From Nitrospirota bacterium (GTDB lineage Bacteria > Nitrospirota > UBA9217): a DNA stretch of 64,000 nt. The DNA lies in assembly GCA_963740085.1 (NCBI GenBank), contig CAVUCU010000004.1:641996-705995 (forward strand), given 5' to 3'. Made by a program: the position numbers and the translations under genes. This document shows positions 30,617-33,591 of this stretch, one piece after another (within the stretch, counting starts at the first letter, position 1; each line of letters begins with the position of its first letter). The notes under the pieces were generated by a model. It ran no database searches. It had not been told where the DNA came from and saw only the letters and a list, made by a program, of their open reading frames with translations.

Positions 30617-31666
30617 CTATCCTGTGGCTAATGCTTTAAACCATTCTATTGATCTTGTTATTGCTTCATTGATTGACACATTGATCTCGAGACCAAGCGC
30701 TCTTTGTGATAACGTTATGTCCGGCAAATACCGGGAGCGGTCATCATTCATATGCTGTATGATAATATCTGATTTCGCATGGGATGCATCCTTGATCTTA
30801 TAGGCCAGGTCTTTGAGATTGATACCTTCCGGACTTCCCACGTTGTACGCCGCGGAGGGCTTGCCGTCAACGAGTATCCTGAGCAGCCAAAGTGCCATGT
30901 CACTGGGATACATGTAACTGCGGAGCGGCTCACCGTTTCCTATTATCCGGATGGTGTTGTTTTTTAGGGCATCCCGTATGAAATTATTGATCGCCCATGG
31001 TTTATCAAGTCTTTGGTAGGGCCCAATAAAAGAGAACGGCCTGGCAGTTACAATAGGTATTTTGAATAAACTCCAATATGCGATACAAACTGTTTCAGCG
31101 TAGCGCTTGGCTTCAGGGTACACGGAAGTAATGGTATTACAATCGATAGCGCCGCAATAATTTTCCGATATGGCTTCGACATCAGCGTGCCTGCCATAGA
31201 TCTGTCCGGAGCTGATGTTCAATATTTTTTTTAACGAGTTCAGTCTGACCGATGCGTCGATCACAGCGCTCGTCCCTTTGGTAATGGTTTCCATGACTCC
31301 TAGGGGATCGGAAACGTGCTGACGATTATCAGGGGTTGCGGCTGCGTGGACTATATAGGAAACGTCACCTGGCACCTCGAATATATTTTTTACATCGGCT
31401 GAAATAAAGCCAACATCTTTACGGGATGCCAGATGCGGTGTCTTGTCTTTGAATGAATCAACGCTTCTGGATACGAGAATCACGTTTGTGTTGAAATGAA
31501 AATTATCATTTAAAAATGTGATGGCTTCGGTCAGCCAGGTTCCGACAAATCCGCTCCCTCCGGTTATGTATACAAGTTGATTTTTCAGTTTTTCGAGCCC
31601 GGTTGCGGAAGGAGCGATGACCTCCTGGCAATCAGTTCTAATGATTTCCAACAATCTATTGTTCAT
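30617..31666 (-). CDS. NAD-dependent epimerase/dehydratase family (extended SDR) sugar-nucleotide reductase/epimerase
   Basis: LVYITGGSGFVGTWL Rossmann motif and a YxxxK region. Confidence 0.7.
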   Translation of the reverse strand: MNNRLLEIIRTDCQEVIAPSATGLEKLKNQLVYITGGSGFVGTWLTEAITFLNDNFHFNTNVILVSRSVDSFKDKTPHLASRKDVGFISADVKNIFEVPGDVSYIVHAAATPDNRQHVSDPLGVMETITKGTSAVIDASVRLNSLKKILNISSGQIYGRHADVEAISENYCGAIDCNTITSVYPEAKRYAETVCIAYWSLFKIPIVTARPFSFIGPYQRLDKPWAINNFIRDALKNNTIRIIGNGEPLRSYMYPSDMALWLLRILVDGKPSAAYNVGSPEGINLKDLAYKIKDASHAKSDIIIQHMNDDRSRYLPDITLSQRALGLEINVSINEAITRSIEWFKALATG

Positions 31667-32681
31667 TGCCGCTCCGATCCTGTTTTTTGAACAATTCCAT
31701 GGCTACTTCAACGATGATGTCTTCCTGTCCGGCAACAACTTTTCTCTTACCGAGTTCGAAAAATATGTCTCTCGGATCGACGTGGTATTTTTCGGCAGCA
31801 CGCGTTACGTGTTTGGCAAAACCGGAAAATACCCCTGCCAACCCGCTCACGATACTTTCACTCTTTATACTGGGAACAACTTTCATTATAGTTTTTTCGA
31901 CTACTTCTGCGGCGTCAAGTACGCCATATAAATCGATATTAGTGTTATACCCCGTCTTTTGTAAAACCGCGACCAGGACCTCCAACTGTGCGTTTCCAGC
32001 GCCTGCCCCAAAACCGCGCGCCGACGCATCAAGAATTTTCGCCCCCGCCTTTACCGCCGCAATTGAATTTGCAATGCCCATACCCAGATTATTGTGCGCA
32101 TGAAAACCGACCGGAATTTTTAAATTGGATGAAAGATAGGATATCCGATCAACCACATCATCGGGCAGATATGCTCCCGCAGAGTCCATAATAATAAGGG
32201 CTTCCGCGCCATATGATTGCATTTTGAAGGCCTCGTCAAGCAGGAGTTCCTTTGAGACCATGTGGCTCATCATGAGAACGCCGAAAACTTCTTTCCCCTG
32301 TTCGCGGGAATAGCTAATGTGCCGTTCAGTAATGTCAGCCTCGGTGCAATGGGATGCCACCCGAACCACATCAACCCCAAATTCGAATGCCCGTGCCAAG
32401 TCTTTTTTTATGGTGGCAAAACCGGGAATAACATGGATCCCCAGCCTCGCTTTTGTCAGGTTCTTTCTTGCCGTTTCCAGCATTTCCCTGTCATCGAGAA
32501 GGCTTAATCCTACCTGCAGGGACGAGGCCCCCAGGCCATTCCCATGTCCCACCTCAACGATGGGGATACCCGCAGCATCGGCAGCCTTTGCATAGGCAGC
32601 GATATTCTCTTTCGTCAAGGCATGGGCGATCGCATGTGAGCCATCCCGAAGCGTCGCATCACTGATTAAAATGGTTTCCAT
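31656..32681 (-). CDS. 4-hydroxy-2-oxovalerate aldolase homolog (DmpG/MhpE/BphI family, DRE-TIM metallolyase)
   Basis: ILISDATLRDGSHAIAHALTKENIAAYAKAADAAGIPIVEVGHGNGLGASS closely mirrors the DmpG N-terminus. It is paired with a DmpF-type gene. The probable start is METILIS. Confidence 0.8.
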   Translation of the reverse strand: METILISDATLRDGSHAIAHALTKENIAAYAKAADAAGIPIVEVGHGNGLGASSLQVGLSLLDDREMLETARKNLTKARLGIHVIPGFATIKKDLARAFEFGVDVVRVASHCTEADITERHISYSREQGKEVFGVLMMSHMVSKELLLDEAFKMQSYGAEALIIMDSAGAYLPDDVVDRISYLSSNLKIPVGFHAHNNLGMGIANSIAAVKAGAKILDASARGFGAGAGNAQLEVLVAVLQKTGYNTNIDLYGVLDAAEVVEKTIMKVVPSIKSESIVSGLAGVFSGFAKHVTRAAEKYHVDPRDIFFELGKRKVVAGQEDIIVEVAMELFKKQDRSGNEQ

Positions 32682-32682
32682 A

Positions 32683-33591
32683 TTATCCTCTGTTAATCGC
32701 TCGTGATTTGGCAAATTCTTCTGCAATGGCTATGGCGGCGCAATTGATAATATCAAGATTGCCGGCATAACTGGGGAGAAAGTCTCCCATTCCTTTGACC
32801 TTTACAGACATGATGATTCTGTCGCCTTCAATCGTCGGAGGTATAACAAGCCTGTAACTTGGAACATACCTCTGAATTTTGACCAGCATTTCATTGATGC
32901 TGGTTTTCAGCAAGGCCATATTGGGCTCTTTCACATGAGCGTAGATCGTTGTTTGCATGTCGATACACGGTTCCGCCGGGTTCAAATTCAGAATTGCTTT
33001 GGCCTTTTTGCAGTTAGAATAGCTAAGAATGCCTTTCTCCGTTGTTTCAACGTATTCATCAAGATTAAGCCTGGTTGCCGGACCGGCGCTCTTCGACGCA
33101 ATGGTCGATACGACCTCTATGTAGTCTACCTGCGGATGGGTATTGCCAATAACATAGGCAAGCGGTATCGATGCCTGGCCACCGCAGGTAACCATATTTA
33201 CATTGTTATAACTCAGGCACTCCTGCAGGTTGATAGCGGGAATACAGAAATGTCCAATCCTTGCCGGCGTCAGGTCAATGGCGATTTTATTCAATTCCCG
33301 CAGAATGCCAGCATGATGCTGGTGGCCTTGCGCCGAGGTTGCATCAAAAACAATCTCGCAACTATCCGGATCATTGACAATTGCATCAATGCCCTGATTG
33401 GAAACGGGAACTTTTAAACTGAGGGCTTTGGACATGCCTTTCGATGACACATTGCGACCGATGAACATACTGCATTCCAGGTAAGGGGATCGCAATGATT
33501 TGATAAGCAGGTCGGTTCCGATATTCCCACTGCCTAAAATTGCAACTTTTATTTTTTTCATGAATGAAGCGACCCGCTGATTAAATAGCAC
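32683..33591 (-). CDS. acetaldehyde dehydrogenase (acylating), DmpF/MhpF family
   Basis: KVAILGSGNIGTDLLIKSLRS N-terminus, a catalytic Cys region (VNMVTCGGQASIP), and about 302 aa. Confidence 0.8.
   Translation of the reverse strand: MLFNQRVASFMKKIKVAILGSGNIGTDLLIKSLRSPYLECSMFIGRNVSSKGMSKALSLKVPVSNQGIDAIVNDPDSCEIVFDATSAQGHQHHAGILRELNKIAIDLTPARIGHFCIPAINLQECLSYNNVNMVTCGGQASIPLAYVIGNTHPQVDYIEVVSTIASKSAGPATRLNLDEYVETTEKGILSYSNCKKAKAILNLNPAEPCIDMQTTIYAHVKEPNMALLKTSINEMLVKIQRYVPSYRLVIPPTIEGDRIIMSVKVKGMGDFLPSYAGNLDIINCAAIAIAEEFAKSRAINRG

Follow-up and report, generated by a model that had tools for sequence, protein, structure and literature searches.

Erwiniose is a 10-carbon branched sugar of Pectobacterium atrosepticum glycans. 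In P. atrosepticum SCRI1043, four neighbouring genes lie by those for cytidine diphosphate (CDP)-4-keto-3,6-dideoxyglucose and encode a YerE-like thiamine diphosphate (ThDP)-dependent enzyme (ErwE), a reductase (ErwF), an acetaldehyde dehydrogenase (ErwJ) and a pyruvate aldolase (ErwI) (Steitz et al. 2022, PMC9306805). ErwI is 43% identical to BphI and ErwJ 41% identical to BphJ, and the two are proposed to make (R)-4-hydroxy-2-oxopentanoate (PMC9306805). In vitro, ErwE couples 4-hydroxy-2-oxopentanoate to a ketone analogue of the sugar, is enantiospecific for the R donor and rejects pyruvate (PMC9306805). A 2025 review restates the erwiniose scheme and cites an in silico survey of more than 200 YerE-like clusters. 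Here we compare with these systems a DmpF/DmpG-type gene pair at positions 31656-33591 of a 64 kb stretch of DNA from a Nitrospirota bacterium (contig CAVUCU010000004.1), which is referred to below as the window.

The pair quite probably serves as the side-chain-precursor module of an operon for an erwiniose-type branched sugar. The pathway logic was already published in 2022 (PMC9306805), and the window is a further example of it rather than a new system. New here are the breadth of the cassette across phyla, a His/Phe substitution in the clade of aldolases to which the window protein belongs, and the association of at least four YerE-like lineages with one DmpFG module.

A DmpF/DmpG pair within a sugar-nucleotide cassette

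Two minus-strand open reading frames (ORFs) fill 31656-33591 exactly:

32683..33591, minus strand: DmpF/BphJ/ErwJ-like acylating acetaldehyde dehydrogenase (TIGR03215, 379.4 bits against a cut-off of 282; Pfam AcetDehyd-dimer PF09290, 158.6 bits)
31656..32726, minus strand: DmpG/BphI/ErwI-like class II pyruvate aldolase (TIGR03217, 402.5 bits against a cut-off of 286)

Both proteins exceed their NCBIfam equivalog cut-offs, which confirms the identities given to them in a first-pass annotation of the window. The aldolase carries an HMGL-like domain (PF00682, 154 bits) and a DmpG communication domain (PF07836, 99 bits), and its best matches among solved structures are HsaF/DmpG (E ~1e-84). The best structural matches of the DmpF-like protein are the acetaldehyde dehydrogenases 7Z3S, 4JN6_B and 1NVM_B (E 5e-84 to 1e-65); the E-values of both proteins are far beyond chance. 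The DmpF-like protein probably starts at the ATG at 33561, 38 nucleotides beyond the stop of the ThDP enzyme gene, which would give it 292 amino acids, equal to its counterpart in a related locus, L084. The aldolase probably starts at the ATG at 32681, 1 nucleotide past the DmpF stop and with an AGAGGA ribosome-binding site in front. It would then have 341 amino acids, a length matching its homologues.

The pair belongs to a run of ten minus-strand genes that extends from 38723 down to 28271 (10.45 kb) with intergenic gaps of ~40 nucleotides or less, and that we call an operon by gene spacing only. The order of transcription would be DdhA, DdhB, DdhC, YerE-like ThDP enzyme, DmpF, DmpG, two extended short-chain dehydrogenases/reductases (SDR1 and SDR2), a GtrB-like family 2 glycosyltransferase (GT2) and GtrA. 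The setting described in the first-pass annotation, between a YerE-like ThDP enzyme and SDRs, therefore holds: the ThDP gene (33600-35408) is directly upstream of the pair and the two SDR genes are directly downstream.

Relatives of the aldolase were collected by scanning one-genome-per-species contigs with the window DmpG-like protein as query, and the best 80 of 259 were retained with their loci. These 80 proteins are 62-80% identical to the query and come from more than 15 phyla, including archaea. The bacterial loci are from Geobacteraceae, Nitrospirae, Bacteroidota, Bdellovibrionota, Armatimonadota, Verrucomicrobiota, Acidobacteriota, Spirochaetota, Omnitrophota, Elusimicrobiota, Actinomycetota, Paenibacillus, and Legionellaceae, Coxiellaceae and Francisella lineages; the archaeal loci are from Methanoperedens, Altiarchaeia and Methanomassiliicoccales. 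No Enterobacterales occur among these best 80 loci of the single genome scan, and no Pectobacterium protein is found among the top 120 aldolase homologues. An exact-sequence look-up of the window aldolase returned no record, and a literature search on both enzyme names jointly with O-antigen returned only unrelated genome papers. The catalytic cysteine of the DmpF-like protein is Cys136 of the ORF, within TCGGQA, and CGGQA is kept in 74 of the 76 dehydrogenase partners in the clade.

When the window's ten operon proteins were searched against the 80 loci with tblastn, nearly all of the aldolases proved to share one cassette of DmpF, a YerE-like ThDP enzyme, SDR1 and DdhABC. Co-occurrence was counted where the aldolase had flanks of 8 kb or more on both sides; the 50 loci of this kind contain ThDP enzyme (48), DmpF (49), SDR1 (45), DdhA (41), DdhB (42) and DdhC (42) homologues. 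The association of DmpFG with DdhABC and YerE, a test that the first-pass annotation had put forward, is thus strongly positive. In L084 the cassette proteins are 81-95% identical to those of the window (tblastn) and keep the same order from the ThDP enzyme through SDR2, the locus ending within the GT2 gene. L086, at ~88% DNA identity, keeps this order through SDR2 and GT2 and also has GtrA.

The conservation of the cassette bears on whether the aldolase is needed at all. Acetaldehyde made by DmpF could be the direct donor for the ThDP enzyme, such that the branch would be a yersiniose-like hydroxyethyl group and the aldolase an accessory or buffering enzyme. Some ThDP carboligases do take aldehydes as donors. 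But no other protein of the cassette is as highly conserved as the aldolase, which lies beside a ThDP gene in 48 of the 50 full-flank loci. A dispensable aldolase is hard to reconcile with this pattern, and such a role is very improbable.

DmpF and DmpG homologues are also familiar from catabolism, and six operon proteins of the Pseudomonas putida meta-cleavage pathway (catechol 2,3-dioxygenase, semialdehyde dehydrogenase, hydrolase, hydratase, decarboxylase and tautomerase) were searched by tblastn against the 64 kb window and the 80 loci. Nothing was found in the window besides DmpF and DmpG themselves, and none of the 80 loci has meta-cleavage genes, in agreement with the earlier claim that catabolic genes are missing from the vicinity. 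Between the window DmpF/DmpG proteins and their P. putida meta-cleavage counterparts, identity is 42% (tblastn). An ordinary catabolic pair, carrying out the last steps of a meta-cleavage or steroid-type pathway and placed by chance inside a polysaccharide locus, would account for two proteins that score above equivalog cut-offs for catabolic enzymes. Yet hydratase, hydrolase, dioxygenase, decarboxylase and tautomerase genes all fail to appear in these searches, the pair is translationally coupled to sugar genes, and the tyrosine responsible for stereocontrol is lost. The aldolase is also only 39-48% identical to catabolic plasmid-borne DmpGs (42-43% for the Burkholderia plasmid homologues), compared with 62-80% across phyla within the sugar cassette. 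The catabolic interpretation was rejected on the tblastn result, and we consider it extremely unlikely.

No aldolase of the sugar clade was found in a plasmid collection, where the best matches (58% in Streptomyces and 51% in Phaeobacter) are both in non-sugar contexts. The Phaeobacter case, on Phaeobacter porticola plasmid pP97_e (L081, 3988-12302), has DmpG and DmpF between two ATP-grasp proteins. The other genes beside the pair encode a protein that binds FAD/NAD(P) and a class I/II aminotransferase; sugar and aromatic genes are absent from its surroundings, and its DmpG pocket signature is His/Ile/Cys. This appears to be another non-catabolic use of such a pair, perhaps in making an amino acid from 4-hydroxy-2-oxovalerate.

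The reading of the pair as a side-chain-precursor module implies the following pathway. DdhA, DdhB and DdhC would convert glucose-1-phosphate to CDP-4-keto-3,6-dideoxy-D-glucose. The DmpF-like enzyme is predicted to work reductively, using NADH (reduced nicotinamide adenine dinucleotide) to convert acetyl coenzyme A (acetyl-CoA) to acetaldehyde, which would pass to the DmpG-like enzyme, probably through the intersubunit channel typical of the complex. There the enolate of pyruvate would add to acetaldehyde to give 4-hydroxy-2-oxovalerate, probably as the 4R enantiomer that the His98/Phe300 pocket predicts (see below). The YerE-like ThDP enzyme would decarboxylate this keto acid and attack the C-4 ketone of the CDP-sugar, leaving a 4-C-(3-hydroxy-1-oxobutyl) branch on a tertiary alcohol. 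Because the decarboxylation is irreversible, it would pull the two reversible steps upstream.

SDR1 would then reduce the 1'-ketone to yield a CDP-3,6-dideoxy-4-C-(1,3-dihydroxybutyl)hexose. The sugar would be erwiniose (3,6,8-trideoxy-4-C-(1-hydroxyethyl)octose) or a stereoisomer, and SDR2 may adjust one further centre. GT2 and GtrA probably move the sugar to undecaprenyl phosphate and flip it, and it would decorate, in the periplasm, the lipopolysaccharide (LPS) or polysaccharide made by the surrounding locus.

Much of this scheme had been anticipated in the first-pass annotation. Its proposal that the aldolase condenses pyruvate and acetaldehyde to 4-hydroxy-2-oxovalerate is supported by genomic context and by the published erwiniose scheme (PMC9306805). 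The proposal that the dehydrogenase supplies acetaldehyde from acetyl-CoA gains support of the same kind, being the step proposed for ErwJ. Grafting of the keto acid onto the 4-keto sugar by the ThDP enzyme, with a branch longer than that of yersiniose, likewise fits the genomic data and matches the ErwE scheme. Nothing was found in favour of its alternative, in which the pair acts on a sugar-aldehyde intermediate.

The aldolase pocket and the ThDP carboligases

Aldolase residues are compared here using the numbering of DmpG from 1NVM, verified on Arg17, Asp18 and His21. Residues Arg27, Asp28, His31, His209 and His211 of the window protein correspond to Arg17, Asp18, His21, His200 and His202 of DmpG. 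The metal ligands (Asp18, His200 and His202) and the catalytic Arg17 and His21 do not vary among the 80 clade members. Three pocket positions have changed:

DmpG Leu88, BphI Leu87: His98 in the window, His in 72 of 80 clade members
DmpG Leu90, BphI Leu89: Ile100 in the window, Ile in 72 of 80 clade members (Ile or Met in 78 of 80)
DmpG Tyr291, BphI Tyr290: Phe300 in the window, Phe in 77 of 80 clade members

At these positions Leu, Leu and Tyr are found in DmpG, HsaF and the P. putida enzyme. Only 15 alignment columns set the clade apart from these three enzymes, and the three pocket residues are included among them. A comparison of substrate residues with BphI and DmpG, which had been proposed as a check, thus finds the catalytic and metal-binding residues kept and Leu87/Tyr290 replaced by His/Phe.

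In BphI, Tyr290 and Leu87 flank C4 of the substrate. The Y290F variant loses stereocontrol, while L87N/Y290F and L87W/Y290F are specific for 4R. Since the His/Phe combination of the clade resembles L87N/Y290F, and ErwE is specific for the R donor, we infer that the aldolases of the clade naturally favour the 4R product, the one that ErwE needs, with the limit that the clade residue is His and not the Asn or Trp of the engineered enzymes. If this is true, the clade offers a class II pyruvate aldolase whose 4R stereochemistry is set naturally by a clade-wide His/Phe pair, a property that would be of use in biocatalysis.

The same pocket positions were surveyed more widely in the best 150 representatives at 50% identity. 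Among these DmpG-like proteins, 67 (within representatives P0400-P0510) share a Phe/Ile/His pocket signature. They are 30-39% identical to the query and many have 650-710 amino acids, about twice the usual length, which suggests that they are fusion proteins.

The length of the aldehyde is a further property of this pocket. The DmpF-like enzyme might reduce propionyl-CoA or another short acyl-CoA, in which case the donor would be 4-hydroxy-2-oxohexanoate or a similar compound and the branch would have at least five carbons. BphI and BphJ handle propionaldehyde about equally to acetaldehyde, and data for BphI L87A and L89A point the same way. ErwE converts 4-hydroxy-2-oxohexanoate better than the pentanoate (76% versus 49% conversion; PMC9306805). 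However, the position of BphI Leu89, which limits aldehyde length, is occupied by Ile or Met in nearly the whole clade and is not enlarged, and erwiniose, the known product of a DmpFG-containing cluster, has a C4 unit. We regard a building block other than acetaldehyde as unlikely.

The proposed recipient of the aldolase product is encoded immediately upstream of the pair:

33600..35408, minus strand: YerE-like ThDP-dependent carboligase of class A with a GDG motif (three TPP_enzyme domains)

This protein falls under every acetolactate synthase equivalog cut-off (350 bits versus 538). Its best matches among solved structures are JanthE (8RPH; 371 bits, 33% identity) and PpYerE (5AHK; 239 bits, 30% identity). 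The prediction is that the enzyme decarboxylates 4-hydroxy-2-oxovalerate and that the resulting C4 acyl unit is attached to the keto sugar at C-4.

Across the loci, at least four lineages of YerE-like ThDP enzymes pair with the one DmpFG clade. Class A, the window type, has the GDG motif; its members are 61-72% identical to the window enzyme. Class A orthologues reside in the same cassette in Geobacteraceae, Nitrospirae, Methanoperedens, Altiarchaeia and Paenibacillus, and class A enzymes are also found in cyanobacteria and methanogens. Class B, the JanthE type, occurs in 41 loci with DdhABC, DmpFG and SDR cassettes (for example, L007, L010, L013-L015, L048 and ~35 more), is 54-72% identical to JanthE and always has an NCDGG motif. 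Class C has an extra HpcH/HpaI aldolase gene adjoining the ThDP gene. The fourth lineage is small and comes from Opitutus-like genomes.

The HpcH/HpaI aldolase (PF03328, ~71 bits) lies beside this third lineage, on top of DmpFG, in 18 cassettes: L005 (6596-7324), L021 (12044-12820), L001, L003, L006, L009, L020, L022, L023, L029, L035, L037, L043, L049, L054, L057, L067 and L078. With two different pyruvate aldolases per cluster, the side chains made by these cassettes may be longer, with two extensions. No HpcH/HpaI gene is present in the window.

JanthE accepts 4-hydroxy-2-oxovalerate. Its CDG motif is held to be unique, and its physiological substrates are stated to be unknown (PMC12188165). 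The presence of JanthE-type genes in DdhABC and DmpFG cassettes predicts that in vivo these enzymes use 4-hydroxy-2-oxovalerate as donor and CDP-4-keto-3,6-dideoxyglucose as acceptor.

The two carbon-carbon bonds of the branch could also be made in the opposite order. The ThDP enzyme would first add an acetyl group from pyruvate, and the DmpG-like enzyme would then extend the resulting methyl ketone with acetaldehyde made by DmpF. This sequence requires an identical gene set, and JanthE, the closest solved relative of the window enzyme, takes pyruvate as well as longer donors. ErwE, in contrast, refuses pyruvate and takes 4-hydroxy-2-oxopentanoate. Moreover, DmpG-type aldolases hold the 2-oxo-acid moiety of pyruvate via the metal and Arg17, residues that are all conserved in the window protein, which argues for pyruvate as the nucleophile and against a ketone as bulky as that of a CDP-sugar. 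Nor do the small, conserved pocket residues (His98, Ile100 and Phe300) hint at a nucleotide-sugar site. Branching before chain extension is therefore quite unlikely, and formation of 4-hydroxy-2-oxovalerate before transfer to the sugar is the order we prefer.

Operon genes and their surroundings

The remaining genes of the operon are as follows:

37950..38723, minus strand: DdhA, glucose-1-phosphate cytidylyltransferase, forming CDP-glucose (TIGR02623, 441.8 bits against a cut-off of 300; Pfam NTP_transferase)
36819..37946, minus strand: DdhB, CDP-glucose 4,6-dehydratase (TIGR02622, 516 bits against 278)
35416..36813, minus strand: DdhC/RfbH (E1), CDP-6-deoxy-4-keto-glucose 3-dehydrase (NF011936, 668.6 bits against 423)
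30617..31666, minus strand: SDR1, extended SDR (Pfam Epimerase, 117 bits; GxxGxxG and YPEAK, a YxxxK motif)
29656..30600, minus strand: SDR2, divergent extended SDR with YTIAK (Pfam Epimerase, 45.6 bits)
28683..29783, minus strand: GtrB/ArnC/PgfS-like GT2 polyprenyl-phosphate glycosyltransferase (Pfam Glycos_transf_2 PF00535, 97 bits)
28271..28672, minus strand: GtrA-family small membrane protein, putative flippase partner of GT2 (Pfam GtrA_DPMS_TM PF04138, 59 bits)

The DdhB gene begins 3 nucleotides beyond the DdhA stop, and the true start of DdhC is probably some codons inside its ORF. DdhC has a C-X-C-X7-C motif at residues 273-283 and a His, within 'YPPHH', at the position of the lysine that binds pyridoxal 5'-phosphate in aminotransferases. 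We take these two features to be the hallmarks of an E1 enzyme, and the predicted product is CDP-4-keto-3,6-dideoxyglucose. A consensus scan for promoters and terminators across 27.5-42 kb gave counts indistinguishable from those of shuffled sequence.

The SDR1 ORF overlaps the DmpG stop by 11 nucleotides, and a homologue is present in 71 of the 80 loci, mostly straight after DmpG. Its closest solved structures are SDRs of the UDP-glucuronate (uridine diphosphate-glucuronate) decarboxylase type. SDR1 is the likeliest candidate for an ErwF/YerF-type reductase of the side-chain 1'-keto group. SDR2 has no solved-structure homologue at E <= 0.01. It occurs in 17 of the 80 loci, chiefly those with class A ThDP enzymes, and is the sole SDR in two Paenibacillus loci (L078 and L079). 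It may be a second reductase or an epimerase that acts on the branched CDP-sugar.

The GT2 protein scores below the NCBIfam cut-offs (208 bits for PgfS, where the cut-off is 500, and 119 bits for ArnC). Its true start is probably near 29624; orthologues that are 56-70% identical adjoin the cassette in 14 loci, and the one in L086 has 310 amino acids. The GtrA gene begins 10 nucleotides beyond the GT2 stop, and the GT2-GtrA pair recurs in L086, L052, L062, L071 and L044. The predicted role of GT2 is to transfer the branched sugar to undecaprenyl phosphate. Elsewhere, the window holds LPS and polysaccharide genes (ManB, ManC, Gmd, Rmd, family 4 glycosyltransferases, an ABC-2 transporter, a flippase, Bac_transf, Wzy_C and a heptosyltransferase), together with biotin and housekeeping genes.

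Two observations concern the genes downstream of the operon. The GDP-mannose (guanosine diphosphate-mannose) 4,6-dehydratase gene at 27048-28095 on the minus strand is split into ORFs of 252 and 116 amino acids that overlap by ~60 nucleotides. This indicates a frameshift, which would make it a pseudogene or an assembly error; the L086 orthologue is intact, with 355 amino acids. A '23S rRNA-intervening sequence protein' (PF05635 four-helix bundle, 95 bits) is encoded at 26599-26994 on the minus strand, between gmd and the rmd-like reductase gene, and this placement is kept in L086.

Upstream of the operon is a stretch of low GC content (37-39%) at 38-42 kb. It contains three consecutive minus-strand ORFs (38914-41132, ~740 codons together) of 201 amino acids with ~six hydrophobic segments, 358 amino acids with ~three, and 140 amino acids, the last being soluble (38914-39336). 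None of the three has a Pfam match, and the membrane ORFs at 39454-41132 were dropped as candidates for a C-fold glycosyltransferase (GT-C) because there was no such match to link them. The 140-residue ORF is the only one of the three with conserved relatives near the cassette: the region upstream of the L084 cassette encodes a 732-residue protein to whose C-terminus it is 43% identical, and in Paenibacillus L078 a stretch that is likewise upstream of the cassette is 38% identical to it. The three ORFs could be fragments of a large membrane protein, for example, the missing periplasmic glycosyltransferase.

Several points weigh against the assignment of this operon to the erwiniose type. The roles of ErwI and ErwJ are themselves only proposed, the donor having been made with HpaI (PMC9306805). 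The window ThDP enzyme is only 30-33% identical to PpYerE and JanthE, such that its donor specificity is extrapolated, and no Pectobacterium protein is found among its 120 best homologues, all of which are at least 64% identical. The pocket positions of the aldolase vary widely across the superfamily in the best 150 representatives, and beyond the clade H-[I/M]-F is shared by ~13 further clusters (50% identity) that are 41-48% identical to the query. Look-ups of ten cluster representatives with this signature returned metagenome proteins only, none of them named. The idea that the His/Phe signature is exclusive to the sugar clade was dropped on account of these more distant clusters.

Other points on the same side concern the rest of the operon. 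No gene for a DdhD/AscD (E3) iron-sulphur flavoprotein reductase was seen among the window ORFs of at least 150 amino acids that were scanned for domains. E1 needs an electron donor, and 3-deoxygenation would therefore rely on one encoded elsewhere. The published erwiniose scheme has no role for a second SDR. Finally, no GT-C transferase for the undecaprenyl-phosphate route was recognised in the window.

More tentatively, the product may be a stereo- or redox-variant C4-branched 3,6-dideoxyhexose rather than erwiniose itself, as the class A YerE-like enzyme and the two SDRs would allow, exported as a polyprenyl-phosphate sugar by a CDP-sugar-dependent GtrB/GtrA-like pair to decorate glycans in the periplasm. 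This conjecture, which we hold to be possible but doubtful, also has a single 4R-tuned DmpFG module that has been combined, across more than 15 phyla, with four or more YerE-like lineages. Were it true, branched sugars derived from 4-hydroxy-2-oxovalerate would be a common and almost entirely unrecognised part of prokaryotic surface glycans. The main reading of the pair already means that 'catabolic' DmpF/DmpG annotations within polysaccharide loci should be taken as biosynthetic, and as a marker of erwiniose-type C4-branched deoxysugars. Such sugars have so far been described chemically in Pectobacterium. The survey suggests that many uncultured bacteria and archaea encode them, as do cultured carriers of the cassette such as Geomonas limicola Red745, Flavobacterium hercynium DSM 18292, Pedobacter hiemivivus RP-3-8, Paenibacillus nuruki TI45-13ar and Marinomonas pontica LMG 22531.

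Comparison with known systems

The Erw cluster is the closest described counterpart of the window operon. When its proteins are compared by description, the gene set is the same: CDP-4-keto-3,6-dideoxyglucose genes, a YerE-like ThDP enzyme, a BphI/BphJ-like pair and an NAD(P)H reductase. The distance to catabolic homologues is also similar (43% for ErwI, 41% for ErwJ and 42% for the window pair). The host is Pectobacterium in one case and a Nitrospirota bacterium, probably uncultured, in the other. Positions 11547-18663 of the window match contig_1415 (2.57 Mb) of the ENA metagenome assembly ERZ25039463 at 98.65% identity over 7.1 kb, and the window MiaB protein finds its best named relatives (70-73%) among Nitrospirota metagenome-assembled genomes. 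The gene order differs, being E-F-J-I as suggested by WP_011093010 to WP_011093013, compared to ThDP-DmpF-DmpG-SDR1-SDR2 in the window. The window also has a second SDR, and it carries a GtrB-like GT2 and GtrA where a Leloir-type transferase was proposed for the Erw system.

The catabolic DmpFG, BphIJ, HsaFG and MhpEF complexes (1NVM, 4JN6) share with the window pair their fold, their domains, including the communication domain, and the adjacency of their genes. They also have in common the metal ligands and the catalytic Arg and His of the aldolase, as well as the Cys of the dehydrogenase. The window pair differs in its predicted flux, which would be reversed (biosynthetic), in having no catabolic context and in its ~42% identity. 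The changes of Leu88 to His, Leu90 to Ile and Tyr291 to Phe predict a 4R rather than a 4S product.

JanthE from Janthinobacterium sp. HH01 is the best solved-structure match to the window ThDP enzyme, and JanthE-type orthologues pair with the same DmpFG clade. JanthE itself has the NCDGG motif, whereas the window enzyme, 33% identical and with a canonical GDG, belongs to a separate lineage. In yersiniose A biosynthesis (DdhABC, YerE and YerF of Yersinia pseudotuberculosis), the acceptor sugar, the ThDP-dependent branching at C-4 and the keto-reduction are alike. YerE, however, takes pyruvate directly to form a C2 branch, with no aldolase/dehydrogenase pair. Yersiniose-type clusters have no dedicated 2-oxo-acid genes, whereas the window has DmpFG, and the ThDP gene stands beside such an aldolase throughout nearly all of the full-flank loci.

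The putative export genes of the window recall the GtrA/GtrB/GtrC and ArnC/ArnT systems: the GT2 has a C-terminal membrane region, its gene lies directly downstream of the sugar-nucleotide genes, and a GtrA-family gene comes next. The donor in the window would be a CDP-sugar and not a UDP-sugar, and a GtrC/GT-C partner is not recognised. The caryophyllose and gastriose clusters (Mycobacterium marinum MMAR_2331 aldolase and MMAR_2332 ThDP enzyme; R. palustris) also supply a ThDP enzyme with an aldolase-made hydroxylated 2-oxo acid as donor and use the same keto sugar. They differ in having an aldolase of the HpcH/HpaI family and longer, polyhydroxylated donors. The use of an aldolase-made 2-oxo acid as ThDP donor is the published 'unifying scheme' for such sugars (PMC9306805).

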